A DNA stretch of 64,000 nt from an uncultured Gemmatimonadales bacterium (GCA_963835535.1 CAWIFL010000003.1:162432-226431), one strand, 5' to 3'. Positions 28,557 through 60,808 are shown, counted from the first letter of the stretch. Notes: generated from the letters alone by a model not told the origin. Translations and numbers: made by a program.

Positions 28557-28560
28557 GGGG

Positions 28561-36440: not shown

Positions 36441-36464
36441 GGGAGACCCGAGAGGTCGCTGAAC

Positions 36465-39203: not shown

Positions 39204-39267
39204 ACGCCTAAGCTAGCATCGGGCCGCGGCCCCGGTGAGGCCGCGGCACCGCGGGGCGCCAGCGCGC

Positions 39268-40620: not shown

Positions 40621-41201
40621 TTGTGACCTCCGAGACTGTCCAGAGCCAGATTGAGCCAGAGGACGTTGACGCGGGGTTCGCCGAAGATGCCGAGCGTCCG
40701 CCCTTCCGTGTGACGCGCCACCAGCGCACGGACCGTGTCGGCGTCAGCCCGCGGGCGCGCGGCGACCCGCGGCACCTGGCCCTCGGCGCTGGCGGGCGAG
40801 ATGTCGGGATCGAGGCCCGAGCCCGACGACGTCACGAGGTCCGCCGGGATCTGCCCCTTCACCCAGTGATCGAGCTTCACCGCGCTGTCCACCGCCTGCA
40901 CGATCAGCGTGTCGGCGAGCTTGGCGCTGGTGGGCCCCAGGTTGGTGCCGCCGGACAGCGTGTCGTCATAGCCGCTGCCGGCCGCCGACGGCCGCGCATG
41001 GAAGTAGCGGGCGCTCGCGAACGACTGCCCGATGAGCAGGCTGCCCACGACGTGCCCGTCCACCGAGACCAGCGAGCCGTTGGACTGCCGCGGGAAGAGC
41101 AACTGCGCGATCCCGGTGACGACGCCCGGATAGAGCACGCCCGTGATGAGCATCAGGACGAGCGTCACGACGATCGCTGGACGAAGCTGGTTCTTGAGCA
41201 T
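40617..41201 (-). CDS. kdpC: K+-transporting ATPase subunit KdpC
   Basis: MLKNQLRPAIVVTLVLMLITGVLYP... and SGSGLDPDISP motif. Confidence 0.9.
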   Translation of the reverse strand: MLKNQLRPAIVVTLVLMLITGVLYPGVVTGIAQLLFPRQSNGSLVSVDGHVVGSLLIGQSFASARYFHARPSAAGSGYDDTLSGGTNLGPTSAKLADTLIVQAVDSAVKLDHWVKGQIPADLVTSSGSGLDPDISPASAEGQVPRVAARPRADADTVRALVARHTEGRTLGIFGEPRVNVLWLNLALDSLGGHK

Positions 41202-41203
41202 CG

Positions 41204-43248
41204 TCAGGCCAGGTGAAGAAGGGTGATCAGCACGTCGAGGACCTTGATCCCCGCGAACGGGATCAGGATGCCGCCCACGCCGTAGATCCAGAGATTGCGC
41301 CGCAGGATCTGCGCAGCCGGCGCCGGCCGCCACCGCACGCCACGGAGGGCGAGCGGGATCAGGGCGACGATGATGAGCGCGTTGAAGACGACGGCGGACA
41401 GCACGGCCGACTGCGCGGTGTGGAGGCGCATGACGTTCAGGGACTGCAGCGCCGGATAGGTGGCGACGAACATGGCCGGGATGATCGCGAAGTACTTGGC
41501 CACGTCGTTGGCGATCGAGAAGGTGGTCAGCGCGCCGCGGGTGATGAGCAGCTGCTTCCCGATCTCCACCACCTCGATGAGCTTGGTCGGATTGGAGTCG
41601 AGGTCGATGAGGTTCCCCGCCTCCTTCGCCGCCTGCGTGCCGGTGTTCATCGCCACCGCCACGTCGGCCTGGGCGAGCGCCGGCGCGTCGTTGGTGCCGT
41701 CCCCGGTCATCGCGACGAGCCGCCCGCCGGCCTGCTCGCGCCTGATGAGCGCCATCTTGTCCTCGGGCTTCGCCTGGGCGAGGAAGTCGTCCACGCCGGC
41801 CTCGGCGGCCACGGCGGCGGCGGTGAGCGGGTTGTCGCCCGTGATCATCACCGTCTTGATGCCCATGCGCCGCAGCTCGGCGAAGCGCTCCTTTATCCCG
41901 CCCTTCACGATGTCCTTGAGGTGCACCACGCCCAGGGCGCGCGCGCCCTCGGCCACGACGAGCGGCGTCCCGCCCTCGCGCGCAATCGCCTCGACCGACG
42001 CCTGGACACTCCCCGGCACGGAGCCGCCATGCTCCGCCACGAACGCCGCGATCGCGTCGGCGGCGCCCTTGCGGATCCGCCGCCCGTCGAGGTTCACGCC
42101 GCTGAGCCTGGTCTGCGCGCTGAACGGGATGAACTGGGCGCCGAGGCCCTGGATGTCCCGCTCGCGGAGCCCGTAGCTCGTCTTCGCCAGCACCACGATG
42201 CTGCGCCCCTCCGGCGTCTCGTCGGCCAGGGACGCGAGCTGGGCGGCGTCGGCGAGGCTCTCGCCGGAGACCCCTTCGGCCGGAATCAGCGCCACCGCCT
42301 GGCGGTTGCCGAGGGTGATCGTGCCGGTCTTGTCGAGCAGCAGCGTGTCCACGTCGCCCGCCGCTTCCACCGCCCGGCCGCTCATCGCGATCACGTTGTG
42401 CTGGATCATCCGGTCCATCCCCGCGATGCCGATGGCGGACAGCAGGCCGCCGATGGTGGTCGGGATCAGGCAGACCAGCAGGGCGACGAGAATCGGAATC
42501 GAGACTGCGCTGCCGGAATAGACCGCGAACGGCTGCAGCGTGACCACGGCCAGCAGGAACACGATGGTCAGGCCGGACAGCAGGATGATCAGCGCGATCT
42601 CGTTGGGCGTCTTCTGCCGCGTCGCGCCTTCGACGAGGCCGATCATCCGATCGAGGAAGGTCTCGCCCGGGTTCGCCGTGATGCGGATGACGAGCCAGTC
42701 CGACAGCACCTTCGTGCCGCCCGTGACGGCGGAGCGGTCGCCGCCCGACTCGCGGATGACGGGAGCAGACTCGCCGGTGATCGCCGACTCGTCCACCGAC
42801 GCGACGCCCTCGATCACCTCCCCGTCGCCCGGGATCAGATCGCCGGGCTGGCAGACGACCACGTCGCCGCGGCGCAGCTCCCCGGCCCAGACCGGCAGAC
42901 CCGACTGCCGGTCCTTCGGGTCGCGCAGGCGCTTCGCCAGGGTCCGCGTGCGGGAGCCGCGCAGGGCGTCGGCCTGCGCCTTGCCCCGCCCCTCGGCCAT
43001 CGCCTCGGCGAAATTCGCGAACACGACGGTGAACCAGAGCCACAGCGCGATCTGCAGCGTGAAGCCGACGCCGCCGCGCCCCTCCAGGACGTCGCGCACC
43101 AGAACCAGCGTGGTGAGCACGCTGCCCACGAGGACGACGAACATCACCGGGTTCCGCACCATGTGCCGCGGATGGAGCTTCGCGAAGGAGTCCCGAACGG
43201 CCCGGCGCACGATCGGGGGGTCGAAGAGCGGCCGCCTGACCGTGGCCA

Positions 43249-43249
<1 letters not shown>
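41204..43249 (-). CDS. kdpB: K+-transporting P-type ATPase subunit KdpB
   Basis: DKTGTIT phosphorylation motif, [20 protein letters not shown]. Confidence 0.95.
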
Positions 43250-44964
<1,715 letters not shown>

Positions 44965-45282: not shown

Positions 45283-46305
45283 TTACCGCAGCACTTCCGA
45301 TATGATCTGGATCGCCCGCTCGATGTCCTGTGCGCTGACGTCCAGGTGCGTGATCGCCCGCAGCCGCTTCGGCCCGAACGCGGTCACCAGCACGCCGCGC
45401 TCGGCCAGCTTCGGAATCACCGCGTCCGCCGCGTCGCGTACGAGGTCGAGCATCACGATGTTCGTGTCGGGCGGGAGCGGCTTCACTCCCGGATGTCCGG
45501 CGAGCCCGGATGCCAGCCGCTTGGCGTTGGCGTGGTCCTCCGCCAGGCGGCCGAGGTTGTGCTCCAGCGCCCAGAGACCGGCCGCGGTCAGGATGCCCGA
45601 CTGCCGCATCCCGCCGCCCAGGCGCTTGCGGATCTCCCACACGTCGTCCCGCGCCGCGCGCGGGAAGGCGAGGCAGGAGCCCACCGGGCAGCCGAGGCCC
45701 TTGGAGAGGCTCACCATCACGGTGGTCGCCGGCGCGGCGAGGCGCGCGGGGGGCACGCCCAGCGCGGCCGCCGCGTTCCAGAGCCGCGCGCCGTCGAGGT
45801 GCAGGTTGACCTTCGCCTCGCGCGCCACCGCGCCGATCGCCTCCGCGACCGCGACGGGCATCACCTTCCCGCCGGCGGCGTTGTGGGTGTTCTCGATCGC
45901 GATGGCGCTGGGACGGGGCACGTGCGGCGACGGGGCGCGCAAAGCGCCGCGCACCAGCTCCGCCGTGAGCAGGCCGTCGGGCGTCGCGACCGGGCGGATC
46001 TGCACCCCGGACAGCGTCGCCACGCCGGCGAACTCGTAGTGCACCAGGTGCGCGTTGGCCTCCAGCAACAGCTCGGTGCCGGGTCGCGTGTCGAGCCAGA
46101 TCCCGCTCTGGTTGGCCTGCGTGCCGCTCGGGAAGAAGAGCGCCGCCTCCTTGCCGAGCAGAACGGCGATGCGCTCCTCCAGGCGGAGCGTCGTCGGGTC
46201 GTGGTCCAGGACGTCGTCGCCGACCTCGGCCTCGGCCATCGCCCGCCGCATCGCGGCGGAGGGGCGGGTGACGGTGTCGCTGCGGAGATCTATCGCGGCT
46301 GGCAT
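45283..46305 (-). CDS. ltaE: low-specificity L-threonine aldolase
   Basis: Start MPAAIDLRSDTVTRPS at 46305. GDDVLDHDPT and the PLP-lysine region VSLSKGLG. Confidence 0.85.
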   Translation of the reverse strand: MPAAIDLRSDTVTRPSAAMRRAMAEAEVGDDVLDHDPTTLRLEERIAVLLGKEAALFFPSGTQANQSGIWLDTRPGTELLLEANAHLVHYEFAGVATLSGVQIRPVATPDGLLTAELVRGALRAPSPHVPRPSAIAIENTHNAAGGKVMPVAVAEAIGAVAREAKVNLHLDGARLWNAAAALGVPPARLAAPATTVMVSLSKGLGCPVGSCLAFPRAARDDVWEIRKRLGGGMRQSGILTAAGLWALEHNLGRLAEDHANAKRLASGLAGHPGVKPLPPDTNIVMLDLVRDAADAVIPKLAERGVLVTAFGPKRLRAITHLDVSAQDIERAIQIISEVLR

Positions 46306-46322
46306 TGGGACCCCCACGGCAG

Positions 46323-46354
46323 GACGCACGGACGCACAGACGCACGGACGCACG
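46323..46354. repeat. 8-bp tandem repeat (GACGCACG)x4 in the ltaE 5' region
   Basis: Read directly from the sequence. Reverse complement of the repeat at 30146-30177. Confidence 0.9.
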
Positions 46355-47713: not shown

Positions 47714-49135
47714 CTATTCCCCGGCTTCCGCGTCGTCCGGCGCCGCCGCCATGGCGGCGGCCGGCTCGGCGCGGCGCAGCACCGGGGCCTTCACGTAATG
47801 CGCGACCATCTCCGCGCTGTGGCTCACCTTGAGCGCCTCGAACAGGAACGAGAACTGGTCCTCGAGCGCCTCGCCCAGCGCCCCGCGCACCGCCTCCGGC
47901 AGGCTCCACCAGTCCTTCTTGAACGGGCCGAGGGCCTTCTTGCGCGTCTTGTAGAAGAACTGCTCGTCCGTCTCCCCCGCCTTGCGCTCACCGGCGGCGT
48001 TGGCGCGCAGCCAGTCGTAGATCTTCGCCTTGAACGCGGCCGGCGTCGCCTCGTGGTCGAACAGGAGCGACTGAAAGGCGGTGGCCAGGTGGATCTCCGC
48101 CGCCTCGACCTCCGGGAAGCGGACGAAGGCCTCGGCCGGCAGCGTCGAGGCGCCGTGCTGCACCGCGCCCGCCATACCGTACTTCTTCCGCGCGTCCTCG
48201 GACAGCTTCTTCAGGACGTCGAGGTCGAGCTTCACCTCGGCGATCGAGCCGTCCGGCAGGACGACGCCGCCGTGGCTCGTCCCGGTCTGCACGCTGATCT
48301 TCGAGACCCCGACGAGCTTCGCGCCGCGGGCCATCAGCGCGCGGACGTAACCGTCCATGAAGACGTGCTGGTCCTCGATCGTGCTGTTCTTCCCGCCGAC
48401 CTCGCCGATCTCGGCGCCGACCGAGATCGTGATGCCCTTGGGCTCCTCGGCGCGGATCACCTCGGTCAGCTCGGCCGCGCGCTCGTAGTTCACCTTCTGC
48501 TGTGCGTCGAGCGTCGGCCGCTCGAGGTCCACCAGCGTCGAGGTGTCGATGTCGATGTTGTAGAACCCGGCGGCGACGGCCTCCTTGATCAACACCTTGA
48601 TCGCGCTGATCTCGCCCTCCGGATCGGTCGCGTACTTCTTGGCGTTGGCCTGGAAGTGGTCGCCCTGGACGAACAGCGGGCCGCGGAAGCCTTCGCGCAA
48701 CGCCGCCGCGATGAGTACGGCCACGTACTCGGCCGGCCGCTGGTCGGTGTAGGCCATCTCGGAGCGCGCGATCTCGACGAGGAAGGCGCCGGCCTCGCGC
48801 TTCACGGCGGCGCGGAACAGCGCCCGCGCCGAATCGTAGGCCATGCCCCGGATGTTGATCGCGGGCACGGTGAAGCCGTGGACCTGCCCCTTGCCCCGCG
48901 CCATGTAGAGGTCGTGGATCGAGGCCGGCCGCACGCCGACCACCTGCCCGATCTCCCACAGCACCCAGCGCGCCGCGTCCCGCCACGTCGCGTCGCCGAA
49001 TACGGCGGTGTCGGCGAGCTGATCGGTCGCCTTGTCCGCGAGCGCGGCGGGTCTCGGGACGGCGACGGCGCCACCCGTGTCCACCGTCACCGCGCCGCCG
49101 AAGGGCCTCACGAGCTTGTTCACGATCTCCTGCAT
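47714..49135 (-). CDS. class II (ketose-bisphosphate) aldolase, long form
   Basis: FTVPAINIRGM, LFVQGDHF, QTGTSHGG and AVQHGAST metal/substrate motifs. Confidence 0.8.
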   Translation of the reverse strand: MQEIVNKLVRPFGGAVTVDTGGAVAVPRPAALADKATDQLADTAVFGDATWRDAARWVLWEIGQVVGVRPASIHDLYMARGKGQVHGFTVPAINIRGMAYDSARALFRAAVKREAGAFLVEIARSEMAYTDQRPAEYVAVLIAAALREGFRGPLFVQGDHFQANAKKYATDPEGEISAIKVLIKEAVAAGFYNIDIDTSTLVDLERPTLDAQQKVNYERAAELTEVIRAEEPKGITISVGAEIGEVGGKNSTIEDQHVFMDGYVRALMARGAKLVGVSKISVQTGTSHGGVVLPDGSIAEVKLDLDVLKKLSEDARKKYGMAGAVQHGASTLPAEAFVRFPEVEAAEIHLATAFQSLLFDHEATPAAFKAKIYDWLRANAAGERKAGETDEQFFYKTRKKALGPFKKDWWSLPEAVRGALGEALEDQFSFLFEALKVSHSAEMVAHYVKAPVLRRAEPAAAMAAAPDDAEAGE

Positions 49136-49377
49136 GACTGCTCCCGACTGCGAGTGTTCCTGGGGAATGTAGGGGTCCGCGCAGAGGGCGTCAAAACAAC
49201 CCGCGACAACGAGGTACGATATTCAACACGAAGCGCGGCGTTACGTTGGGGCGGGCCGGAGCGTCCTGGGAGGTGCACCCTTCCCACCCCTCGGTCTGAG
49301 GCGCCGCTAGCCGAGACGATAAGGGCCGGGGCTCTTACGGCGCGCCTCGGCGCCACGTAGTTTCCCACGTCAAAGCC

Positions 49378-50910
49378 ATGTACACACAAGCAAGGGCGCA
49401 CCCTACCTTGGCTCCATCCGTGCCCAAGTCTCCGACGGGCATTCAGGGGCTGGACGAGATCACCGGTGGCGGGCTGCCGCGCGGCCGGCCGACGCTCATC
49501 TGCGGTGGCCCCGGGTGCGGCAAGACCATTCTCTCGATGGAGTTCCTGATCAACGGGGCGCGTCAGTTCGGCGAAACGGGCGTGTTCCTGTCGTTCGAGG
49601 AGACCGTCGAAGATCTGACGCAGAACTTCGCCTCGCTCGGGTTCGATCTGCGCCCTCTCTCGGCCCGAAAGAAGCTCTCGTTGGACTACGTCCGGGTCAT
49701 GCCCAGCGAGATCCAGGAGACCGGCGAGTACGACCTGGACGGCCTCTTCATCCGCCTGGGGCACGCGATCGATTCCATCGGCGCCAAGCGCGTGGTCCTC
49801 GACACCATCGAGACGCTCTTTTCCGGACTCTCCGATACCCGCCTGCTGCGCGCGGAGCTGCGCCGGCTCTTCGACTGGCTCAAGACCAGGGGCGTCACCG
49901 CCATCGTGACCGGGGAACGCGGCGAGGGCAAGATGACTCGCCACGGTCTGGAGGAGTACATCACCGACTGTGTCATCCTGCTGGATCACCGGGTCGTGGA
50001 CCAGAACGCGACCCGGCGGCTCCGTGTCGTGAAGTTCCGGGGCTCGACCCACGGGGCCAACGAGTCGCCGTTCTTCATCGACGAGACGGGCATCTCGGTG
50101 CTCCCGATCGCCTCCCTGGGATTGCAGCACCGGGTCCCGCCCGGCCGCGTCTCGACGGGTGTGCCGGATCTCGACGGCATGCTGGGGGGCAAGGGCTACC
50201 ACCGGGGCAGCAGCATCCTGGTGTCCGGCAGCGCGGGCACCGGAAAGACCAGCCTGGGGGGCTACTTCGCAGACGCCGCCTGCCGCCGGGGCGAGTCCGC
50301 CCTCTACTTCGCGTTCGAAGAGTCGGCCGCCCAGATCGTGCGCAACCTGCGGTCGATCGGCCTCGATCTCGAGCCGTCGCTACGAAAGCGACTGCTCCAG
50401 GTCCACGCGGCACGCCCCACGACGAGCGGTCTGGAAGGGCACCTCAGCACAATGCACCGGCTGATCGAGGAACAGCGGCCGCGGGTGGTGATTGTCGACC
50501 CGATCAGCAACTTGATCTCGGTGGGTACGTCGGTCGAAGTCAAGGCCATGCTCGCGCGCCTGATCGATTTCATGAAGGTTCGACAGATGACCGCCTTGTT
50601 CACGTCGCTGACCATCGACGAAGGCCATCCTGAAGGAACCGACCTCGGCATTTCCTCGTTCATGGACACGTGGCTGGTGCTCCGGAACATCGAAATGAAC
50701 GGGGAGCGGACCCGCACGCTCAGTGTGCTGAAATCGCGGGGCATGCCGCACTCGAATCAGGTGCGGGAGTTCGTCCTGACCAGCGGTGGCCTGAAACTGC
50801 TCGAGGTAGTGCGGCATCAGGGCCGCGTGCTGGTCGGGTCGGAGCGGGAGGCCCAGGGCGGCCGCGCCGTCGCGGCACGACGCGCGGCGAGGCGCGAATC
50901 GCGTCGATGA
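49378..50910 (+). CDS. kaiC: KaiC circadian-clock-type double-domain ATPase
   Basis: Two RecA-like halves. [14 protein letters not shown] plus Walker A GGPGCGKT plus SFEE; then [14 protein letters not shown] plus Walker A GSAGTGKT plus AFEES. The Ser-Ser pair in GISSFMDTW aligns with the cyanobacterial S431/T432 site. Confidence 0.9.
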
Positions 50911-51251
50911 GCGCGAAGCCGGCACGGCAGTCGCGCAGGCCCCGCAAGATCCAGGCGACGGCGGACTTCTACGATCTCCGGCTCTACGTCGCGGGTCAGA
51001 CCGCGAGGTCGCTGGCCGCCATGGCGAACCTCGTGAAGCTCTGCGACGAACATCTGGAGGGGCGATACCGCATCGAGGTGATCGATCTCCTCGAGCGTCC
51101 GCAATTGGCCCGGGGCGACCAGATCGTCGCTCTCCCGACCCTGGTCCGCAAGCTCCCCAAGCCGATCCGCAAGCTGGTCGGGGATCTCTCCAACACCGAG
51201 CGCGCCCTGGTCGGGCTGGACCTGCGCCCGAGAGCCCCAGGCAAGACGTAA
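50907..51251 (+). CDS. kaiB: KaiB
   Basis: Start MSAKPARQ at 50907 (ATGA overlap with the kaiC stop). LRLYVAG.T..S..A..NL...C......G.Y.IEVIDL...P.LA....I.A.PTLV is the KaiB thioredoxin-like signature. Confidence 0.85.
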
Positions 51252-51270
51252 AGGCCGGCCAGGGACGGCG

Positions 51271-52542
51271 GTGAGACGCAAGCGCACGTCGGGCCGACGC
51301 CGGAGCCCGGTCCCGGGACTCCGGGCACGGCTGTCCGAGGCTGAAGCGACCCTGGAGGCCATCCGCACCGGTGCGGTAGACGCGGTGATCGTGTCGGGCC
51401 CCGAGGGCGAGCAGACGCGGGCCATCGAGGGCGCAACCCATCCATACCACGTGCTGCTGAACGCCATGAACGACGGCGCCGCGCTGCTGGCCCCCGACGG
51501 GAGAATCCTCTTCGGCAACCGCCGCCTCGGCGAAATCGCCCGGGCGCCGCTCGAGCGCCTGCGTGGTTGCCCGCTCCAGCAACTCTTTGCACGAGCGGAG
51601 CGAGCGCGCGTCGACGAGTTCCTGCGAGAAGGCGGGCAGAACCGCGCCCGGGAATTCACCATGCTCGATGGACAAGCGTCCGCGACGCCCGTCGGGATCG
51701 CGCTCTCCGAGATCCCGCTCGAGATCCAGCCGGGAGCGACCGGGGCGGAGGCATGGAGCGGCGCCGCCGTCTTGATGGCCATCATCACGGACCTGACCGA
51801 GCGGAAGCGGGCCGAGGCCACGCGCCTGGAGCTGATGAAGCGCCTGATCTCGGCGGAAGACGAGGAGCGCCGGCGCTTCGCTCGGGAGCTGCACGACGAG
51901 ACCGGGCAGTCGCTCACCGCCCTGCTGGTCGGGCTTCGCGCCATCGAGGAGCGGGCGGTCACGCTGGACGTACATACGGCGGCGCAGCAGCTGCGGAGTG
52001 TCGCTGCACGGACCGTGGACGACGTCGGACGCCTGGCCCGCGGCCTGCATCCCAGCGTCCTGGATGACCTGGGACTGGCGGCGGCCGCGCGGCGGCACGT
52101 GAACGACTTCACGAAGTCGTTCGGTGTCGCCGTCGACCTGCGGGTGGATGGCATCCTCTCGCTCCGCCTGTCGCCGCTGGTGCAGACGACGATGTATCGG
52201 ATCCTGCAAGAGGCGCTGACCAACGTGGCGCGGCACGCACGGGCTCGGCTGGTGGATGTGGAGCTCACGTACGAGGGGGGCGCCCTCGAACTCGCGGTTC
52301 GAGACGATGGTGTCGGTTTCGACGCGGGTGAGACAGTCCACAATGCGTCGGGACTTGGCCTGCACGGCATGCGGGAGCGGGTCGCCCTGCTGGAGGGAGC
52401 CGTCGAGATCGAGTCGAGCCCGGGACGTGGGACCGTCGTGCGCGCGCGCATCCCCGGCGCCATCGCCCCCCCCCCCCCCGACGAACCCAGCGCCGGTAGC
52501 GGCGTGAGCGCACCAGGTAGGAACCGCAACCGTGCCCATTAG
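51271..52542 (+). CDS. PAS-domain sensor histidine kinase (HisKA_3 type)
   Basis: PAS (LLNAMNDGAALLAPDGRILFGNRRL). H-box ISAEDEERRRFARELHDETGQSL. HATPase (LTNVARHA, DDGVGF, GLGLHGMRER). Confidence 0.85.
   Translation: MRRKRTSGRRRSPVPGLRARLSEAEATLEAIRTGAVDAVIVSGPEGEQTRAIEGATHPYHVLLNAMNDGAALLAPDGRILFGNRRLGEIARAPLERLRGCPLQQLFARAERARVDEFLREGGQNRAREFTMLDGQASATPVGIALSEIPLEIQPGATGAEAWSGAAVLMAIITDLTERKRAEATRLELMKRLISAEDEERRRFARELHDETGQSLTALLVGLRAIEERAVTLDVHTAAQQLRSVAARTVDDVGRLARGLHPSVLDDLGLAAAARRHVNDFTKSFGVAVDLRVDGILSLRLSPLVQTTMYRILQEALTNVARHARARLVDVELTYEGGALELAVRDDGVGFDAGETVHNASGLGLHGMRERVALLEGAVEIESSPGRGTVVRARIPGAIAPPPPDEPSAGSGVSAPGRNRNRAH
52466..52479 (+). repeat. C14 homopolymer tract
   Basis: 14 consecutive C (encoding PPPP) 63 nt before the kinase stop and 53 nt before the overlapping regulator start. 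Confidence 0.95.
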
Positions 52543-53209
52543 AGTACTGATCGCGGACGACCACGCCATCCTGCGGGCCGGACTTCGCATGTTGCTCGAG
52601 GCGCAGACGGACATCGAGGTTGCGGGCGAAGCGGGCGACGGAACGGAGGTCTCCCGGAAGGCCCGCGAGCTGCGACCCGACGTCGTCCTGATGGACCTCT
52701 CGATGCCGGGGCCACCCAGCGGCGAGGTCATCCGTCAGGTCCTGCGAGCGTGTCCGACAACTCGAGTCCTGGTCCTCACGATGCACGATGATCCGGCGTA
52801 TCTCACCGCGGCGATGTCGGCGGGGGCCGCAGGATATGTAGTAAAGAAGGCGGCCGATGCGGAGCTGCTGTTGGGTATCCGGGCCGTCCAGGCCGGGCGG
52901 ACGTTCGTGGACTTTACGCGCGGCGCCGGCCTGCCCCCGAACGCAGCCCCCCGAACCTCCGCCGTGCGGCGGCACGCGCCGAAGGACCTGAGCCGCCGAG
53001 AGCGCGAAGTGCTCGTGCTGCTGGCGCAGGGGCACTCCAATCAGCAGATCGCCGATCGCCTGCGCGTGGGCGTGAAGACGGTGGAGACCTACCGCACCAG
53101 ACTCCGGGAGAAGCTCGGGCTCAAGGGGCGCTCGGAGCTCTATCGCTTCGCCATCGAATCCGGAATCCTCGGCGTCGCTTCCGGCGCACCACCCGACGCC
53201 CGGGACTAG
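52532..53209 (+). CDS. NarL/FixJ-family response regulator
   Basis: REC (IRVLIADDHAILR...DVVLMDLSMPG) plus LuxR HTH (LSRREREVLVLLAQGHSNQQIADRLRVGVKTVETY). Overlaps the kinase stop by 11 nt. Confidence 0.9.
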   Translation: MPIRVLIADDHAILRAGLRMLLEAQTDIEVAGEAGDGTEVSRKARELRPDVVLMDLSMPGPPSGEVIRQVLRACPTTRVLVLTMHDDPAYLTAAMSAGAAGYVVKKAADAELLLGIRAVQAGRTFVDFTRGAGLPPNAAPRTSAVRRHAPKDLSRREREVLVLLAQGHSNQQIADRLRVGVKTVETYRTRLREKLGLKGRSELYRFAIESGILGVASGAPPDARD

Positions 53210-53340
53210 CCCACCCTGTTGTCGGGTCCAACCCCGACATTCCGTGCTGACCCAAGGGATTTTCCCGCTACCGATGGCGCTCCGCCGCGCCCATCCTTGT
53301 CGTGGGGTAAACCACGACATCGGCATCGACAGCGCGGGGA

Positions 53341-54054
53341 GTGGGGATGATCGAGGGGCGACCGGTCACTGCAGCAGGCGTAATCTCCGTAGCCCTCATC
53401 GAGGACAATCGCCTGGTGCGCGAAGGGATTGCCGCCCTCCTCAATCAGCTGCCGGACCTGAAGGTCGTCGCCGGGGAGTCGGGCGACGACACGTCGGTGC
53501 TGCGGAAGGCGAACCCTCACGTGGTCCTCCTGGACCTCGGCTTGCGGAACGGCGACAGCCTGCGCGTGGCGGAGAAGGTCAAGAAGGAGTTGCCGGCGTC
53601 CAAGGTCATCGTGATGGATCTCCTCCCCGTGCACGAGGACATCGTGGAATTCGTCAACGCGGGCGTGTCCGGTTTCATCATGAAGGACGCCACCCTCGAC
53701 GAACTCGTGAGCGCGATCCGATCGGTGGCGCAGGGAGGCCACGTCCTGCCGCCCCAGATGACCGGCACGCTCTTCTCCCAGATCGCGCGGGACGCGGTCG
53801 CCCGCGGCCGGCCGGAGGCGCTCGACTCCGTACGGATGACGCCGCGGGAACGAGAGGTGATCAACCTGATCGCGGAAGGGTTGAGCAACAAGGAAATCGC
53901 CGGACGGCTCAACCTCGCGACCCACACGGTCAAGAGCCACGTGCGCAACGTGATGGAAAAGCTGACGCTGCACACCCGGCTGCAGATCGCCGCTTATGCG
54001 CACAATGACGGCCGGGAGAGCCCCTCCGGCGGAAGCCCGAGGTCCGGCGACTGA
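53341..54054 (+). CDS. NarL/FixJ-family response regulator (second copy)
   Basis: REC (VALIEDNRLVREG...HVVLLDLGLRNGDS) plus LuxR HTH (MTPREREVINLIAEGLSNKEIAGRLNLATHTVKSH). Confidence 0.85.
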   Translation: MGMIEGRPVTAAGVISVALIEDNRLVREGIAALLNQLPDLKVVAGESGDDTSVLRKANPHVVLLDLGLRNGDSLRVAEKVKKELPASKVIVMDLLPVHEDIVEFVNAGVSGFIMKDATLDELVSAIRSVAQGGHVLPPQMTGTLFSQIARDAVARGRPEALDSVRMTPREREVINLIAEGLSNKEIAGRLNLATHTVKSHVRNVMEKLTLHTRLQIAAYAHNDGRESPSGGSPRSGD

Positions 54055-54073
54055 CGCGGCCCCCAGGCCGATT

Positions 54074-54095
54074 CTGAGGCGCCGCAGCGCCTCAG
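54074..54095 (+). terminator. hairpin after the second regulator
   Basis: CTGAGGCGC-CGCA-GCGCCTCAG, a perfect 9-bp stem with no U tract. Confidence 0.35.
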
Positions 54096-54263
54096 ACCCG
54101 CAGTACCTCCAAGGCATTACGTCGTAAGCGGTAGTTCCCCTCTCATCCCTTTTTCACCCGTTCGCGCGATACCTGCCGCACGCCCTCAGGCCTAGCTTCA
54201 CGCTGTTCCTCGCCGATCTCGATCGACCGCGGCCTGGCACGCCGTCTTCGTCCTTCAGCAAAG

Positions 54264-56321
54264 GTGGGTACAATGTCAGCTCTCCGCCGACTCGCGGCGC
54301 GACTCGTCTGGATGGTCCCTTTCGCCGCTCTGATCTCCGCGGCGTGCGAGCACAGCCCCACAGGGAATTTTCCTGTGGCGACAATCGTCGTCACAGAGCG
54401 CACAGAGACCCTGGTAATCGGCACGAGCGTGCAATTCACCGCTACCGGCTATGACGCCAACAATTCGGTGGTGGGCATCAGCCCGACCTGGTCGACCGCC
54501 GGCGGTGGCGGAACGTCCATCACCCAAGCGGGCGTGTTTACCGCAGGCACGACGCCCGTGACGAATACGGTGACGGCGACCGCGGGCGGCGTTTCGGGCA
54601 CCGCGACGGCGATCGTCATCGCCGGTGCGGCGGCGAGCATCACCGTCACACCAAACCCGCAGACAGTCGCGATCAACGGCACGCAGCAGTTCACCGCCGT
54701 GATCAAGGACGCTTCCAGCAACATCCTTGCGATCACGCCCAACTGGTCCACAGCGGCGGGCGGCGGAACCATCAGCGGCACGGGCCTGTTCACCGCGGGC
54801 ACGGCGGCGGGGACGTACACCAATACGGTCACCGCGAGCGTCGGCAGCCTCAACGGCACCGCGACCGTGACCGTATCCACCTCGGCTCTGGCGAGCATCA
54901 CCGTCACGCCAAGCCCGCAGGTCCTCGCCATCAACGGCACCCAGCAGTTCACCGCCGTGGGCAAGGACGGCAGCGGTAATGTCGTCGCAATCACGCCGAC
55001 GTGGTCGGTCGTGGCGAGCGGCGGAGCCATCAGCGCCGCCGGTCTGTTCACGGCCGGCACCGTGTCCGGCCCGTTCGTCAGTACGGTCAGGGCGTGCAGC
55101 ACCGCGCTCTGCGCCGCCGGCAGCGTCTCCGGCTTCGCCACCGTCACGGTGACCCCGGGTGTCCTGGCGACCATCACCGTCACGCCGCCCAACCAGAGCG
55201 TGGGGACCAGCGCCAGCCAGCAGTACACCGCCGTCGGCACTGACGCGCATAACAACATCATTCCGATCGTGCCGGTGCAGACCTGGTCCGTCCAGAACGG
55301 AAACGCGGGCGGAAGTGTCTCCTCCAGCTCCGGCTTCTATACTGCTCCTACGCTGGTCGGGGTCGGGTTCGACACCGTCCTGGCTACCAGCGGCGCCATC
55401 GTCGGCAAGGTGCGGGTCAACGTGACCGCGTCGGGCGGGCTGGTGTCCATCGCCGTCACACCCAACCCGACCAGCCTCGGAGAGGGCGGGACGCAGCAGT
55501 TCACGGCGACGGGCTTTGACGCCACCGGCCTCATCGTTCCCATCCCCGCAGGGCTCGTCTGGTCGGTCGTGCCAAGCATGACAGCAGCCGGCACCATCGA
55601 CGGTAGCCTGGGCCTGTTCACCGCGGGTTCGGCGGTCGGGACGTACACCAATGCCGTCAAGGCACTGAGCGGCAGCATTTCGGGCTTCGCCACGGTCGTG
55701 GTCACCGCAGGTCCGCTCGTGCCTCTCGGCGCAGCGGCCCCGAACGGGATCATGGCGGGCCAGGCCGTCACCTGCATCACGGGCGGCCTCATCAGCGCCG
55801 ACGTCAGCATCAGCCCGGGAAACACGATCACGGGCTTCGGTCCCTGCGTGATCACGGGCGTGCAGCATCTGGCCGACGCCGTGGCGTTGAATGGACAGAA
55901 TGACCTCACGACCGCCTACAACACGCTGTTTGCCCTGCCCTGCCCGCCGGCGAATGCCATCGTGGCCGACCTGGGCGGAACGACCAAGCCGGCAGGTGTC
56001 TACTGCACCGCGAGCGGAATCGGCGTGACGGGCACGCTGACGCTGGATGGCGGTGGGGATCCGAATGCGAACTTCGTCTTCCAGGCCGGTACCTCGATCG
56101 TCACGGCCGGTAACGTCGTCCTGATCAATGGGGCGCAGGCCAAGAACGTGTACTGGTTGTCTGGCAGTTCGGTCACGCTCGGCACGGCCTCGCAGTGGAA
56201 GGGCAACATCGTCGCCCTGACCAGCATCACGCTGGTGGACAACGCCACGCTGTTGGGACGCGCCCTGGCGCGGAACGGCTCCGTGTCGCTGGGAACCGGC
56301 AACACGATCACCCTGCCGTAG
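54264..56321 (+). CDS. surface protein: five Big_2 Ig-like repeats + C-terminal DUF3494 (ice-binding-like) domain
   Basis: Signal peptide. Repeats of type ITVTPNPQTVAINGTQQFTAV...W(S/T)....GGTIS..GLFTAG. The C-terminus (NDLTTAYN...DLGGTTKPAGVYC...LTLDGGGDPNANFVFQAGTSIVT...NGAQAKNVYWLSGSSVTLG...WKGNIVALTSITL...GRALARNGSVSL) fits the DUF3494 beta-solenoid pattern. An ATG at 54273 is an alternative start. Confidence 0.75.
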   Translation: MGTMSALRRLAARLVWMVPFAALISAACEHSPTGNFPVATIVVTERTETLVIGTSVQFTATGYDANNSVVGISPTWSTAGGGGTSITQAGVFTAGTTPVTNTVTATAGGVSGTATAIVIAGAAASITVTPNPQTVAINGTQQFTAVIKDASSNILAITPNWSTAAGGGTISGTGLFTAGTAAGTYTNTVTASVGSLNGTATVTVSTSALASITVTPSPQVLAINGTQQFTAVGKDGSGNVVAITPTWSVVASGGAISAAGLFTAGTVSGPFVSTVRACSTALCAAGSVSGFATVTVTPGVLATITVTPPNQSVGTSASQQYTAVGTDAHNNIIPIVPVQTWSVQNGNAGGSVSSSSGFYTAPTLVGVGFDTVLATSGAIVGKVRVNVTASGGLVSIAVTPNPTSLGEGGTQQFTATGFDATGLIVPIPAGLVWSVVPSMTAAGTIDGSLGLFTAGSAVGTYTNAVKALSGSISGFATVVVTAGPLVPLGAAAPNGIMAGQAVTCITGGLISADVSISPGNTITGFGPCVITGVQHLADAVALNGQNDLTTAYNTLFALPCPPANAIVADLGGTTKPAGVYCTASGIGVTGTLTLDGGGDPNANFVFQAGTSIVTAGNVVLINGAQAKNVYWLSGSSVTLGTASQWKGNIVALTSITLVDNATLLGRALARNGSVSLGTGNTITLP

Positions 56322-56425
56322 GCAAGTACGGCTCGAGGGCTCGCGCGGGAGCCGGAGACCAGTCCGGTCTCCGTCTCCCGCACCGGCCGGAAGCTGTGAA
56401 CTCTTAGCGAGATTGGGGAGAGCAC

Positions 56426-57541
56426 ATGCGTAACCGAATTCTGAAGATCGTGGGGACGCTGGCCGTGTGTTTGCCGACGCTGGCGATGGCCCAGCAGCAG
56501 CCAGAGCCCGAGCGCGGCAGAGGCACCTGGGAGTTCAGCTTGGGCGGAGGCATCTCCATACTCGACGCCATGCTCCGGGGCTATCTTGGAAACGGGGCGC
56601 CCTCAACCCGGTACAACAACGGCTATCCGGGAGTTATCGCGCCCACCGTCGGCGCCCTCGTGGGCTACAACTTCAACCCGCACCTCGGTTTCAGCCTGGG
56701 GGGCGAGGCCGCCTTCGCTTCCAGTGTGAGCCTCAAGACGGAGGACGCCGCCCTCACGTACACGTGGAACCTGAACGCGAGGACGACCCCCTTCGTCCTC
56801 GGCGGGATGGAACTCACCCGCATCGACGGCCTCAACGATCGGACCAGTCACTCGACCTGGGGCGCCATGGGAGGCGTCGGCGTCCGCCAGATGGTCGGCA
56901 GGAACCTCGCGGTTCGGCTCGAGGGCCGGATGCGGCTCGAGGGCTACCAGGAGTTGCCGGCGGGCGACGCGTGGACATCAGAGATCAGGGTCGGCCTTTC
57001 GTACTTCGTCGGCGGACGGCGGCCTGCCGGCCCCCGGATGGCGGCGGCAGAGTATCGGCCGCCCCGTATGCTCGCGCGCGTGGATACGGTCGTGCGGGTG
57101 CGCGTGGATACGGTCGTGCGGGTGCGCGTGGATACCCTGAGACGGACGGATACGGTGCGCGTGATGGAACCGCAGCCGGACCAGATCGTTCTGCGCGTGC
57201 AGTTCGCCACCGACTCGACGGCGCTGCTGCGGAAATCGCGGCCGGTCCTCGATACGATCGCGCGTGCCATCATCGCGACGCCGAACTCGCAGTGGGAGGT
57301 GCAGGGCCACACCGACAATGTCGGCACGGCGGAGCACAATCGGATCCTCGCCCAGGGCCGCGCGCAGACGGTGGTGGATTACCTGGTCCGCCGCGGAGTG
57401 GATCGCAACATCCTGACGGCCAAGGGCTACGGTGAGGATCGCCCCGTGTTCTCCAACAGTACCATCTACGGGCGCGCGCAGAACCGGCGCGTGCAGCTGC
57501 GGCGCATCCCCGCACCGCCGACCGGGCCGCCGGTGAAGTAG
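56426..57541 (+). CDS. OmpA-family outer membrane protein (beta-barrel + OmpA C-terminal domain)
   Basis: Signal peptide. C-terminal peptidoglycan-binding motif (FATDSTAL...VQGHTDNVGTAEHNRILAQGRAQTVVDYL...NRRVQL). Confidence 0.85.
   Translation: MRNRILKIVGTLAVCLPTLAMAQQQPEPERGRGTWEFSLGGGISILDAMLRGYLGNGAPSTRYNNGYPGVIAPTVGALVGYNFNPHLGFSLGGEAAFASSVSLKTEDAALTYTWNLNARTTPFVLGGMELTRIDGLNDRTSHSTWGAMGGVGVRQMVGRNLAVRLEGRMRLEGYQELPAGDAWTSEIRVGLSYFVGGRRPAGPRMAAAEYRPPRMLARVDTVVRVRVDTVVRVRVDTLRRTDTVRVMEPQPDQIVLRVQFATDSTALLRKSRPVLDTIARAIIATPNSQWEVQGHTDNVGTAEHNRILAQGRAQTVVDYLVRRGVDRNILTAKGYGEDRPVFSNSTIYGRAQNRRVQLRRIPAPPTGPPVK
57076..57136 (+). repeat. 24-bp in-frame tandem repeat (about 2.5 units) in the OmpA linker
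   Basis: GCGCGTGGATACGGTCGTGCGGGT x2 plus a partial unit, encoding RVDTVVRVRVDTVVRVRVDT. Confidence 0.9.
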
Positions 57542-57576
57542 TGGTGTCCTGAGAGGTTGAACGCAGCAGTCTGACA

Positions 57577-57606
57577 GCGGGAGTCGGACCTGGGTCCGAC
57601 TCCCGC
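57577..57606 (+). terminator. strong hairpin downstream of the OmpA-family gene
   Basis: GCGGGAGTCGGACC-TG-GGTCCGACTCCCGC, a perfect 14-bp stem with no U tract. Confidence 0.5.
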
Positions 57607-57634
57607 GTCGCAAGCAGGTCACCGGGAGGACTAG

Positions 57635-58048
57635 ATGCCACGTCCCCGTCGTCCGCACCGCAAGGACGTTCGCCTGGAGCGGAAGACTGCCGAGGACACA
57701 CGGCAGGCCGGGACCGGAGCCTCGAGCCGGTCAGCGGCGACGCTGTGGGCGTACACGTATCAGATCGTGCCACGGCAGACCAGGATTCAGATGCGGGCGG
57801 TAGAAGCCCTCCTCGACCTGGAGCATGCGGACGCGAAGAACGCATCGGCCACGTTCGGGGGACGCTTGATCGTCGGTACGCAGGGGACGCGCATCCTGAT
57901 CGTGAGCGACTGTCCCGGACGAAGCTGTGCGGCGAACCAGCGACTGGAGTCCGAGCTGAGGCAGCTGCAGGCGGAGTTCACCGTGTCCGAGCCGGTGCTG
58001 CTGGCGGACGACGCGGCGACACCCTCGCCGGCAGCGACCTCCATGTAG
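57635..58048 (+). CDS. hypothetical protein
   Basis: ORF of plausible composition. No family recognised. Confidence 0.35.
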   Translation: MPRPRRPHRKDVRLERKTAEDTRQAGTGASSRSAATLWAYTYQIVPRQTRIQMRAVEALLDLEHADAKNASATFGGRLIVGTQGTRILIVSDCPGRSCAANQRLESELRQLQAEFTVSEPVLLADDAATPSPAATSM

Positions 58049-58057
58049 GGAGAACCC

Positions 58058-58654
58058 ATGACGACGCCGTCGAGCGCGAGAAGTGACGTGCACGCGCCCC
58101 TGGGGCTGCACCGGTACCGCGCGGGCGTTCGGCGTGGCCGGCAGCTCGAGTCGGTGGGCCGGCAGCGCAGCGCGACCCCGCTCGCGCCCCCGATGCAGGA
58201 GGCCCTGGACCGCGTCACGTATCTCGCCGGCCAGGCACTGGACGCGCCGGCCGTGTGCGTGTCGCTCGTGGATGCGGAGCGGCGGCTCCTGGCGAGCAGC
58301 TACGGCCTGCCCGTACCCACCGCCCTCCTCATTTCGCACGCGTTCCACAAGCACATCGTCGCCTCCCGCCGCCCCCTGGTGGTGGCGGACGGGCGCCGCG
58401 ACCCGCTGGTGGCGCAGAACCCGGCGGTGCGCGACGGGACGGTGCGCTCGTGCGTGGGCATGCCCTTCGGCACGGCGGACGGGCGCACGATCGGCACCCT
58501 CCTTGCGATGGACCCCCGACCGCGCCGGTGGACCGCCCCGCAACTGGATCTGATAGGCAAGCTCTCAGCGCTGATTGTGAGCGAGGTGGAAGTGGGGGTC
58601 GCGGTGCGCCGTACGTGGCGCAGCGCTGCCCGCCTTCCGCAAGCGAACCTGTAA
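58058..58654 (+). CDS. GAF-domain protein
   Basis: LDRVTYLAGQALDAPAVCVSLVD...RSCVGMPF...GRTIGTLLAMD..PRRWT..QLDLIGKLSALI fits the stand-alone GAF pattern. Confidence 0.65.
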   Translation: MTTPSSARSDVHAPLGLHRYRAGVRRGRQLESVGRQRSATPLAPPMQEALDRVTYLAGQALDAPAVCVSLVDAERRLLASSYGLPVPTALLISHAFHKHIVASRRPLVVADGRRDPLVAQNPAVRDGTVRSCVGMPFGTADGRTIGTLLAMDPRPRRWTAPQLDLIGKLSALIVSEVEVGVAVRRTWRSAARLPQANL

Positions 58655-59791: not shown

Positions 59792-60808
59792 TCAGCCCGA
59801 CGCGCCCCTCCGTCCGCCCACGAACCACGTCCTGACTTCGCCCCTGCCCTCGACCTCGAGCGCGCCGCGCTCCTCGAGCAGGAACGATTCGTCCAGCAGC
59901 TGCCGAGTGCTCTCCGCCACCTGCACGCGCCCCGCCACGCCGTGGGATTCCATCCGGCTGGCGATGATCACCGCGTCGCCCCACACGTCGTAGAGGTACA
60001 TCCGCTTGCCGATGACGCCGGCCACCACCGGCCCGGTAGCGATGCCGATGCGCAGCTGGAGCGCGGAGCCGCCGCGCTCATTGAAGCGGTTCAGCGCGTC
60101 GATCATGTCGAGCGACAGGTGCGCCGCCCGCACCGCATGATCGCCCGATGGCACCGGCACACCCGCGGCGGCCATGTACGAGTTCCCGAGCGTCTTGATC
60201 TTCCTGAGGCCACGCTGCCGGGCGAGGTCGTCGAACGTGGTGAAGATCTCCTCGAGCTGGAGCGCCAGCTGCTCGGGGCCCACCGGCGGCGTCAGCTCCG
60301 CGAATCCCACGATGTCCGCGATCACCACCGTCGCGTCCGCGAAGTGGTCCGCGGTGACGTCCGGGCGTGCCGCCAGCCGCGCCGCGATCGAGTCCGGCGG
60401 CACGTGGAGGGCCAGCCGCTCCGCCACCTTCCGCGCCGCCACGACCTGATCGAACAGCTGCTTCAGCTCGCCATTCTTGCGGCGCACCTCGGCGTACAAC
60501 AGGCGGACCTCGAGCATGTTGTGGACCCGCGTCAACACCTCCGGGACATCGAAAGGCTTGCTGATGAAGTCCTTCGCCCCGGCCTTGAGCGCGCGCAGTT
60601 TGTGCTCCGGCTGGGCCGTGATCACCAGGACCGGCAGGTACCCCTCCTTCTCGACCTCCTTCAGCCCCTCCATCACCTGGAATCCGTCCATGTCGGGCAT
60701 CTGGAGGTCGAGCAGGATCAGGTCGTAGCGATGCGCCTCGTGCAGCGCACACACCGCACGCGGATCCTGCGTCGACGTGACGGACGCATACCCGGCGCCG
60801 CCGAGCAT
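59792..60808 (-). CDS. response-regulator receiver + class III adenylate/guanylate cyclase
   Basis: REC (YDLILLDLQMPDMDG...KPF) plus cyclase domain (ATVVIADIVGFAEL...KTLGNSYMAAAG...GIATGPVVAGVIG...YDVWGDAVIIASRME). The first canonical start, at 60808, omits the in-frame upstream RILVVDDQPANVLLLER (60809-60859). Confidence 0.8.
   Translation of the reverse strand: MLGGAGYASVTSTQDPRAVCALHEAHRYDLILLDLQMPDMDGFQVMEGLKEVEKEGYLPVLVITAQPEHKLRALKAGAKDFISKPFDVPEVLTRVHNMLEVRLLYAEVRRKNGELKQLFDQVVAARKVAERLALHVPPDSIAARLAARPDVTADHFADATVVIADIVGFAELTPPVGPEQLALQLEEIFTTFDDLARQRGLRKIKTLGNSYMAAAGVPVPSGDHAVRAAHLSLDMIDALNRFNERGGSALQLRIGIATGPVVAGVIGKRMYLYDVWGDAVIIASRMESHGVAGRVQVAESTRQLLDESFLLEERGALEVEGRGEVRTWFVGGRRGASG

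Follow-up and report, generated by a model that had tools for sequence, protein, structure and literature searches.

A KaiA-less kaiC–kaiB locus of KaiC2 type beside a PAS histidine kinase and NarL-type regulators in a Gemmatimonadales bacterium

How KaiB–KaiC systems outside the cyanobacteria relay their signal to the cell is an open question, and a compact test case for it lies in a 64,000-nucleotide stretch of an uncultured Gemmatimonadales bacterium (GCA_963835535.1, CAWIFL010000003.1:162432-226431; hereafter the window, meaning the whole stretch). Five neighbouring genes encode KaiC, KaiB, a histidine kinase with a PAS domain, and two response regulators of the NarL type, here called RR1 and RR2. 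A first-pass annotation, made from the DNA alone, had described them as a KaiA-less timing module coupled to a two-component output. An open reading frame list combined with a codon-position G+C screen (the window has a G+C content of ~70%) recovered all five as co-directional genes on the plus strand, at the coordinates given by that annotation and with families that fit it. We read the locus, with a probability of about 0.6, as a KaiA-independent, KaiC2-type KaiB–KaiC switch of a soil Gemmatimonadales bacterium, probably co-transcribed with the kinase and RR1, and working as a timer of the hourglass or energy-state kind whose output is transcriptional.

KaiC, KaiB and the kai transcription unit

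The kaiC product is a double-domain KaiC of the KaiC2 subgroup. It scored 696 bits against the NCBIfam model NF006799, 'circadian clock protein KaiC' (cutoff 408), and matched Pfam PF06745 in two stretches (E = 2e-108). Its closest solved structures are those of Rhodobacter sphaeroides KaiC (KaiC_RS; 8DBA, 8DB3 and 8FWI, ~584 bits), with structures of Synechococcus elongatus KaiC (KaiC_Se) scoring ~312 bits; over 476 aligned columns it shares 56% identity with KaiC_RS and 37% with KaiC_Se. Motifs were placed by alignment to an S. elongatus KaiC reference sequence 100% identical to PDB 1U9I. The alignment bore out what had been claimed of the protein: two Walker A motifs (GGPGCGKT, residues 43–50; GSAGTGKT, 284–291), both catalytic EE pairs (74–75 and 314–315) and a Ser-Ser pair at the phosphosites. 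The arginine fingers (R221 and R454) are also in place, and with every catalytic residue present the protein is predicted to be catalytically competent. T421 corresponds to S. elongatus T426, and S426-S427 (codons at 50653-50658) to S431-T432 and to S413/S414 of KaiC_RS, the pair mutated to Glu-Glu in PDB 8FWI.

For comparison we collected relatives at one genome per species, which gave 80 loci (numbered L001 onwards): 12 from Gemmatimonadales/Gemmatimonadota, with KaiC 79–88% identical to that of the window, and 68 further ones (57–65%) from Acidobacteriota, Verrucomicrobiota, Bacteroidota, Cyanobacteria, Betaproteobacteria, Nitrospirota, Myxococcota, Chloroflexota and other phyla. Ser-Ser instead of Ser-Thr at the phosphosites is a hallmark of the KaiC2 subgroup (PMC5520375, PMC10076222), and all 81 KaiC2-group sequences aligned (the window, KaiC_RS and 79 loci) carry it, Ser-Thr occurring only in the KaiC1 outgroup. 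In a neighbour-joining tree rooted on KaiC1, which covers KaiC1 and KaiC2, the Gemmatimonadales proteins form a monophyletic clade within a radiation of long-tailed KaiC2 proteins, and KaiC_RS branches earlier. The phylogeny proposed by the first-pass annotation as a check therefore nests the protein within KaiC2, and the subgroup placement follows from this nesting together with the Ser-Ser pair and the higher identity to KaiC_RS. Grouping with RadA/Sms or single-function ATPases, which that annotation had named as grounds for refutation, was rejected (RadA/Sms, 72 bits against a cutoff of 403), as was a cyanobacterial KaiC1-type identity (TIGR02655, 325 bits against a cutoff of 546, besides the low identity to KaiC_Se). 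An exact-sequence lookup of the window KaiC returned no record; the protein database holds hundreds of KaiC sequences at 81–97% identity, from Gemmatimonadales wherever the source is named.

The C terminus sets this clade apart. In KaiC2 proteins an extension of ~50 residues or more, found 'predominantly' in this subgroup, forms a 12-helix coiled coil and thereby a dodecamer (PMC10076222); such an extension is typical of KaiC2 and not strictly defining. Most of the 68 loci outside the Gemmatimonadales encode a charged, heptad-like tail of 75–105 residues. The window KaiC has 20 residues after position 490, basic and without heptad character, and the tails of other Gemmatimonadales KaiC proteins, read to the stop codon, are likewise basic, 16–21 residues long and poorly conserved (L003-L009, L011 and L048), those of L001 and L002 being shorter still. 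The short-tailed clade sits inside the long-tailed radiation in the neighbour-joining tree, so the short tail is most simply read as a secondary loss. At the position of KaiC_RS Y436, part of its allosteric network, 54 of 67 long-tailed proteins have Tyr, Phe or His, whereas all 11 Gemmatimonadales KaiC proteins aligned have Ser, Asn or Asp (Ser in the window), a substitution that would fit relaxed constraint once the coil had been lost. Short KaiC2 tails (roughly 0–21 residues after position 490) also occur outside the Gemmatimonadales, in L038 (Anaerolineales), which carries a single kaiB, and in L051 and L074 (Ideonella); because of these, the coiled coil seems to have been lost more than once. 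A useful guide to the consequences is the engineered KaiC_RS-Δcoil, which is a hexamer, phosphorylates near-normally (5.5 versus 7.4 per h) and shows little autodephosphorylation (PMC10076222).

KaiB matched Pfam PF07689 at 92 bits (cutoff 27), and its best PDB match is R. sphaeroides KaiB in the KaiC–KaiB complex 8FWJ (100 bits). Its scores lie below the cutoffs of the cyanobacterial equivalog models (91 against 110, and 85 against 145), so that it is not of the cyanobacterial KaiB1 type. The S. elongatus residues G88 and D90, which have been mutated to lock KaiB in its fold-switched form (PMC9478674), correspond to G103 and D105 here, and the fold-switch positions are thus conserved. Two tandem kaiB genes occur in 59 of the 68 non-Gemmatimonadales loci and in none of the 12 Gemmatimonadales loci, where the copy kept is of the kaiC-proximal type; tblastn found no second kaiB or kaiC within the window. 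The tandem copies follow kaiC and precede the PAS kinase (loci L012-L080; L015 4606-5177 and L019 2222-2849 are examples), the proximal one 54–75% and the distal one 38–60% identical to the window KaiB, and both distal copies scanned are true KaiB-domain proteins. We know of no description of this paired-KaiB arrangement. With a KaiA query that retrieved PDB KaiA chains at 608 bits as a control, tblastn returned nothing below E = 6 from the window and nothing from the 80 related loci, in line with the earlier statement that kaiA is missing.

The gene junctions are tight. An ATGA at 50907-50910 is common to the kaiC stop and the kaiB start, 19 nt separate the kaiB stop (TAA, 51249-51251) from the GTG start of the kinase at 51271, and RR1 starts at a GTG (52532) that overlaps the kinase stop (TAG, 52540-52542) by 11 nt. 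Read directly from the DNA, these junctions bear out the ATGA overlap, the close start of the kinase and its overlap with the first regulator that had been reported, the figure of 20 nt for the kaiB–kinase distance corresponding to the 19-nt spacer. Gene order and overlaps recur in independent gene calls on L081, L083 and L086, the 4-nt kaiC/kaiB overlap included. A consensus promoter and terminator scan of the cluster returned nothing above chance: no terminator-like site fell between genes, the sole plus-strand match lay inside kaiC, and the total did not exceed that of shuffled sequence. An Rfam scan of 47–58 kb of the window found no RNA family. Because of the 4-nt overlap, the 19-nt gap, the 11-nt overlap, the lack of an intergenic terminator-like site and the same order in relatives, kaiC, kaiB, the kinase and RR1 are probably co-transcribed.

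The kinase module, the two regulators and candidate DNA elements

The order kaiC–kaiB–PAS kinase has been described as an operon for Rhodopseudomonas palustris and R. sphaeroides (PMC4794148), and the general rule that kaiBC is joined to a PAS kinase dates from 2011 (PMC3164672) and was restated in 2022 (PMC9478674). The window shows this order on one strand with tight spacing, and the order recurs in 71 of 81 sources. A KaiA-less KaiBC joined to a PAS kinase is therefore established knowledge, and the window is a lineage variant and no new type of system. What appears to be clade-specific is the combination of a coil-less KaiC2, a single kaiB, a non-hybrid kinase with a separate NarL-type RR1, and an atypical RR2. 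The claim that the operon hard-wires an output branch to the clock stands as far as synteny links the kinase; its novelty was overstated, and on timing and output we can only infer.

As the first-pass annotation had it, the kinase is of the PAS/HisKA_3 type, with PAS_4, HisKA_3 and HATPase_c as its Pfam domains. Having no hydrophobic segment (maximum 19-residue Kyte–Doolittle value 1.18), it is predicted to be cytoplasmic and soluble. H208, N318, D345, G347 and G349 are near-invariant in an alignment of 43 kinases, with the H, N and G boxes intact. A SasA- or CikA-like identity was rejected: Pfam recognizes the three domains above and no KaiB-like or pseudo-receiver domain, and a KaiB query matches only kaiB in the window, which agrees with the reported absence of a sasA- or cikA-like gene.

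The transmitter varies among relatives and the sensor does not. In more than 10 phyla, essentially all of the complete KaiC2-type loci examined have a PAS kinase after kaiB, and this synteny supports a functional link between the kinase and KaiBC. Of 43 genes directly 3' of kaiB, 41 encode PAS kinases; their phospho-acceptor domains are HisKA_3 (23), HisKA (16) or HWE/HisKA_2 (3), and one of the 43 genes has a sigma-54 activator domain. Of the 43 scanned, 15 are hybrid kinases with a fused receiver; the Gemmatimonadales kinase is non-hybrid. Across phyla the best-conserved part is the N-terminal ~46 residues that lead into the PAS domain, with the consensus LRxRLxEAEETLxAIRxGEVDALVVxGPxGxxVFTLxGAxHxYR: outside the Gemmatimonadales, identity to the window kinase is 37–61% in this segment and 7–42% in the dimerization and histidine phosphotransfer (DHp) region. 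Searched as a regular expression, the core motif had a single match in each of 71 of the 81 sources, in every case on the kai strand and immediately behind kaiB. Six-frame translation of 903 kb gave no other match, although further PAS kinases are encoded there; the sources without it are mostly cut contigs or carry slight variants of the motif. A PDB sequence search with the sensor module returned no significant relative, and a database search with the module alone gave 30 close matches, mostly fragmentary and uninformative on its distribution. These comparisons suggest that the AIRxGEVDA + PAS module, and not the transmitter, co-evolves with KaiBC. Because N terminus and PAS stay constant whatever transmitter follows, the module is probably the Kai-coupling domain, by docking or by sensing.

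RR1 matched the Pfam families Response_reg (80 bits) and GerE (66 bits), and all its receiver residues are canonical (D9, D10, D55, T83 and K105). With the H, N and G boxes of the kinase, and with its own REC and GerE domains and its Asp-Asp, Asp, Thr/Ser and Lys residues, the pair has the make-up of a NarL/FixJ-type two-component system. RR1 orthologs (71–79% identity) follow the kinase in 10 of the 12 Gemmatimonadales genome loci, and also in L081, L082, L083 and L086; full-length NarL-type regulators lie in the cluster in only two of the 68 non-Gemmatimonadales loci. Because its start overlaps the kinase stop, RR1 is likely to be the kinase's cognate partner.

RR2 is a different case. It too has GerE (68 bits) and Response_reg (50 bits) domains, and its receiver keeps E21-D22, D65 and K115; aligned to NarL (1A04), it has Asp93 at the position of NarL S87, in place of the conserved Thr/Ser switch residue. 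Asp93 lies within a VIVMDLLP segment that does not vary among the RR2 orthologs and paralogs. The gene begins 131 nt beyond RR1 and has a conserved upstream region of its own. Where RR2 orthologs were looked up on long contigs, the kai–kinase–RR1 unit lies directly 5' of RR2 in L081, L082 and L086, is parted from it by inserted genes in L083, L088 and L002, and is not found within 7 kb in L084 or L087. Judged by these neighbourhoods, RR1 belongs to the kai unit and RR2 is tied more closely to the envelope/stress island downstream. The description of two NarL-type regulators coupled to a clock is thus right about the families and about RR1; the two are not equivalent, and RR2 sometimes stands apart from the kai genes or occurs without them. 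The possibility that RR1 and RR2 are KaiA3-like chimeras was rejected on their strong GerE domains and lack of KaiA similarity. In several relatives a third NarL-type gene, an RR2 paralog (53–58% identity) absent from the window, directly follows RR2 (L004 10566-11291; L008 10605-11345; L081 7617-8357; L086 7617-8306); in the L008 paralog the phospho-acceptor Asp is lost (D→A), which would make it a pseudo-receiver.

The spacer between RR1 and RR2 holds a perfect 7-6-7 palindrome, followed by a GGGATTTTCCCGCT element; 5' of RR2 it is conserved as TGTAGGGTCTTTCCCCGACA, with GGGTTTCCCCGCT after it. The palindrome is found in every locus with RR1 (L002, L004-L009, L011, L048, L081-L083, L086 and L088), and both elements are kept 5' of RR2 wherever RR1 is present; both are missing in L084 and L087, the two RR1-less loci. 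The palindrome pattern has one exact match in the 64-kb window. A 20-bp dyad is of a size that fits a GerE-type dimer, as in LuxR/NarL operators, and we propose the palindrome as a candidate operator for such a dimer, putatively RR1. Because it co-occurs with RR1 and not with RR2 alone, it suggests that RR1 controls RR2 and, with it, a cascade from Kai through the kinase and RR1 to RR2. A second palindrome or hairpin, nearer to RR2 (TGTCGTGG and CCACGACA arms; RNA fold z-score −2.5), is not kept as a palindrome in orthologous spacers and was not used in this model.

Upstream of kaiC lies the 11-mer ACGTAGTTTCC, which L003 and L009 have unchanged in the corresponding place and L001, L005, L006 and L048 have as 1–2-base variants; it is single-copy in the window, where 0.17 chance matches with at most one mismatch are expected, and is a candidate promoter-proximal element. 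The 61-nt segment 54055-54115, which contains a GC-rich hairpin after the RR2 stop, folds at −28.9 kcal/mol (z = −3.5; one of 200 shuffles folds as well) and is a probable transcript end. The consensus terminator scan, which needs a T-run, missed it.

Genes around the kai unit

Downstream of RR2, four further co-directional genes form a candidate RR2-linked envelope/stress island outside the kai unit (Table 1). The first encodes a lipoprotein with a signal peptide ending in ISAAC, internal repeats and a C-terminal ice-binding-like domain. Genes for Ice_binding, OmpA/Gly-zipper, GAF, DUF5670 and Peptidase_M48 proteins follow the RR2 orthologs of L081, L083 and L086, and in part those of L084 and L087; several ice-binding-like genes are found there in Gemmatimonadales (L081, L083 and L086). 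Minus-strand open reading frames at 54449-55261 and 55337-55909 were rejected as convergent genes, as they have no Pfam match and their repeats mirror the plus-strand lipoprotein; we regard them as antisense artefacts.

The upstream neighbour, divergent from kaiC, is a distant class II aldolase-like gene with no match in any related locus. The window also holds a complete Kdp potassium-uptake locus (35745-44964, minus strand), two genes of the beta-eliminating lyase family and an IS481-family-like transposase in a region of ~65–67% G+C. Near the kai cluster, a fusion of a receiver with an adenylate/guanylate cyclase lies beside a three-PAS hybrid kinase that lacks the AIRxGEVDA motif.

Table 1 Features of the window, with positions counted from its first nucleotide
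Feature	Position	Strand	Remarks
Conserved 11-mer ACGTAGTTTCC	49355-49365	+	13 nt before kaiC ATG
kaiC	49378-50910	+	510 residues; KaiC2 subgroup, Ser-Ser phosphosites
kaiB	50907-51251	+	114 residues; Pfam KaiB
Sensor histidine kinase	51271-52542	+	423 residues; PAS_4, HisKA_3, HATPase_c
Kinase N-terminal helix and AIRTGAVDAVI motif	51358-51390 (motif)	+	
Kinase PAS	~51457-51825	+	
Kinase HisKA_3	51865-52062	+	H208 at 51892-51894
Kinase HATPase_c	52183-52455	+	
RR1, NarL/FixJ-type regulator	52532-53209	+	225 residues; Response_reg, GerE
Palindrome TGTCGGG-TCCAAC-CCCGACA (candidate operator)	53220-53239		perfect 7-6-7; RR1–RR2 spacer
Second palindrome/hairpin TGTCGTGG-GGTAAA-CCACGACA	53298-53319		22 nt before RR2 start
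RR2, NarL-type regulator, atypical receiver	53341-54054	+	237 residues; start GTG 53341 or ATG 53347
GC-rich 10-bp hairpin	54073-54096	+	19 nt after RR2 stop; no U-tract
Downstream co-directional genes (candidate island)	54264-58654	+	
Ice-binding-like lipoprotein	54264-56321	+	PF11999 Ice_binding, E = 1e-41
OmpA-family protein	56426-57541	+	OmpA
137-residue protein	57635-58048	+	
GAF protein	58058-58654	+	GAF
IS481-family-like transposase	932-2233	−	HTH and rve integrase core
Beta-eliminating lyase family gene	27189-28661	−	PF01212
Beta-eliminating lyase family gene	45283-46353	−	PF01212
KdpE-like OmpR regulator	35745-36464	−	Kdp locus
KdpD sensor kinase	36465-39212	−	Kdp locus
OmpL-like porin	39268-40743	−	Kdp locus
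P-type ATPase (KdpB-like)	41204-43834	−	Kdp locus
KdpA	43249-44964	−	Kdp locus
Class II aldolase-like gene	47714-49135	−	
Receiver-adenylate/guanylate cyclase fusion	59792-60808	−	
Three-PAS hybrid kinase	60881-63424	−	

Known systems, proposed working and alternatives

The closest structural relative of both window proteins is the R. sphaeroides KaiBC hourglass (KaiC_RS and KaiB_RS; 8DBA, 8FWI and 8FWJ; Pitsawong et al. 2023, PMC10076222), which shares the Ser-Ser phosphosites, the lack of KaiA, a kaiC gene that precedes kaiB, and an operon that includes a PAS kinase. It differs in its KaiC extension, which is ~70 residues longer, forms the 12-helix coiled coil of the dodecamer and drives autodephosphorylation, whereas the window KaiC ends 20 residues after the A-loop region, has Ser at the Y436 position and resembles the engineered KaiC_RS-Δcoil. 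By its published gene arrangement, the R. palustris operon (Ma et al. 2016, PMC4794148) is alike in having three genes, a single kaiB and no KaiA; it has a predicted single promoter and serves a proto-circadian (hourglass-like) timer, but no NarL-type regulator has been reported in it and its host is a phototrophic alphaproteobacterium. The cyanobacterial KaiABC clock with SasA–RpaA and CikA shares the double-domain KaiC with identical catalytic architecture, the KaiB fold-switch positions, and an output that passes by way of a histidine kinase and a response regulator that binds DNA. In contrast to it, the window has no KaiA, a KaiC with Ser-Ser in place of Ser-Thr and only 37% identity, a kinase with a PAS module in place of the KaiB-like domain of SasA or the pseudo-receiver of CikA, and a HisKA_3 kinase with a NarL-type regulator where cyanobacterial RpaA is of the OmpR type; its output genes lie in the kai operon, whereas those of cyanobacteria lie elsewhere in the genome.

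Two further systems bear on single parts. The PAS domains of S. elongatus KidA bind fold-switched KaiB in vitro, and the same study pointed out the co-operonic PAS genes of bacteria with kaiBC only (PMC9478674); KidA is thus the mechanistic precedent for a PAS module that senses the state of KaiB, although it is a four-PAS GGDEF-EAL protein that tunes the period and whose gene lies apart from the kai genes. The KaiA3–KaiB3–KaiC3 system (Köbler et al. 2024, PMC11372060) likewise has a NarL-type receiver domain encoded beside kaiB and kaiC, but KaiA3 has a KaiA-like C-terminal domain and activates KaiC3, whereas RR1 and RR2 have GerE domains and no KaiA similarity and the window KaiC is of the KaiC2 type.

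From these comparisons we infer that the properties described in the literature transfer to the window proteins, that the kinase reads KaiB/KaiC, that RR1 is its cognate regulator and that RR1 acts on the RR2 promoter. The KaiC hexamer would autophosphorylate S427 and then S426 without KaiA, as KaiC_RS does, given its identity to that protein and its intact motifs. Lacking the coil, it would be a single hexamer, not a dodecamer, and would dephosphorylate poorly on its own; by analogy with the KaiC_RS-Δcoil phenotype, resetting would then depend on KaiB and the ATP/ADP ratio. Fold-switched KaiB would bind phospho-KaiC, and the AIRxGEVDA + PAS module would dock on KaiB or on KaiB–KaiC, as synteny and the KidA precedent suggest, so that kinase activity would track the state of KaiC. 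The kinase would phosphorylate RR1 at D55, and phosphorylated RR1 would bind the 20-bp palindrome before RR2 and control RR2, hence the adjacent envelope/stress genes. Rather than a self-sustained clock, the whole would be an hourglass or energy-state timer whose output is transcriptional; the KaiA that marks a self-sustained KaiABC oscillator is absent from the window. The more specific form of this proposal, in which a coil-less KaiC2 with a single KaiB and no dodecamer switch is read by a universal AIRxGEVDA + PAS domain, and the signal runs from kinase to RR1, operator, RR2 and an envelope/ice-binding stress island, is tentative, and taken as a whole we consider it improbable. The universality it includes draws on the presence of the module on kinases of three phospho-acceptor classes in more than 10 phyla.

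Several points weigh against our reading. The deep nodes of the neighbour-joining tree carry no bootstrap support, and the coil-less clade may hold compensatory changes that break the analogy with KaiC_RS-Δcoil. Co-transcription is deduced from spacing alone, the correlation between RR1 and the operator turns on just two negative loci (L084 and L087), and the KidA precedent comes from three PAS domains of an unrelated protein. Our literature search found no paper linking KaiC to Gemmatimonadota. Signalling may also run in the other direction: the PAS kinase of R. sphaeroides has been suggested to be an input (redox) sensor (PMC5520375).

If the kinase is an input, its PAS domain would sense redox, oxygen, light or a metabolite and modulate KaiBC or share a regulon with it; RR1 and RR2 would report the PAS signal, and KaiBC would be a mere modifier. 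The kinase of the R. sphaeroides operon has indeed been proposed to pass a redox signal to KaiBC (PMC5520375, PMC10931921), PAS domains are classic ligand sensors, and the module has neither similarity to the KaiC-binding domain of SasA nor a solved relative among PDB sequences. We nevertheless think this rather unlikely: a fixed protein partner fits an N-terminal segment and PAS domain that stay the same whatever the transmitter at least as well as a fixed ligand does, no cofactor-binding signature was identified in the kinase, and binding of PAS to KaiB has direct precedent (PMC9478674). Input and output roles are, moreover, not mutually exclusive. It is very improbable that the two-component genes stand beside kaiBC by accident. 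RR2 orthologs do occur with no kai genes nearby (L084 and L087), and genes have been inserted between RR1 and RR2 (L002, L083 and L088), but for the kinase and RR1 the idea is untenable: in 71 of 81 sources from many phyla a motif-bearing PAS kinase comes after kaiB, 10 of 12 Gemmatimonadales loci have RR1 behind the kinase with the overlaps conserved, and flanking genes show no such conservation, the upstream aldolase being unmatched in every related locus.

A more serious contender, though still an unlikely one, is that the locus is no timer and, with no relation to day length, turns on an envelope/stress regulon when ATP/ADP is low, as a module for general stress resistance or energy state comparable to the systems of Legionella and Pseudomonas. 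KaiC2 homologs have been reported to act in the stress response of Legionella, and Synechocystis KaiC2–KaiB2 is thought to be independent of the clock (PMC5520375, PMC11372060). The conserved neighbours are envelope- or stress-like (ice-binding-like, OmpA, Gly-zipper, M48 peptidase and GAF, with ferritin or HSP20 in some loci), and no photosynthesis genes were found among the window genes scanned. On the other side, the closest characterized relative, R. sphaeroides KaiBC, is an ATP/ADP-driven hourglass; 'energy-state switch' and 'hourglass' name the same biochemistry, and the difference between them is physiological and beyond sequence to decide.

Within 4.7 kb, the locus brings together a predicted hexamer-only KaiC2, one KaiB, a soluble 423-residue kinase, a canonical DNA-binding partner and a candidate operator. 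If the proposed path is true, it would be the first complete, testable route from clock to DNA for a non-cyanobacterial Kai system. That the coil has been lost in nature offers an evolutionary control for the allosteric model of R. sphaeroides KaiC. The cross-phylum result on the kinase module may prove more useful than the locus itself: the constant part of Kai-linked kinases is a short motif with a PAS domain and not the kinase core, which points to where their link to KaiB or KaiC should be sought.

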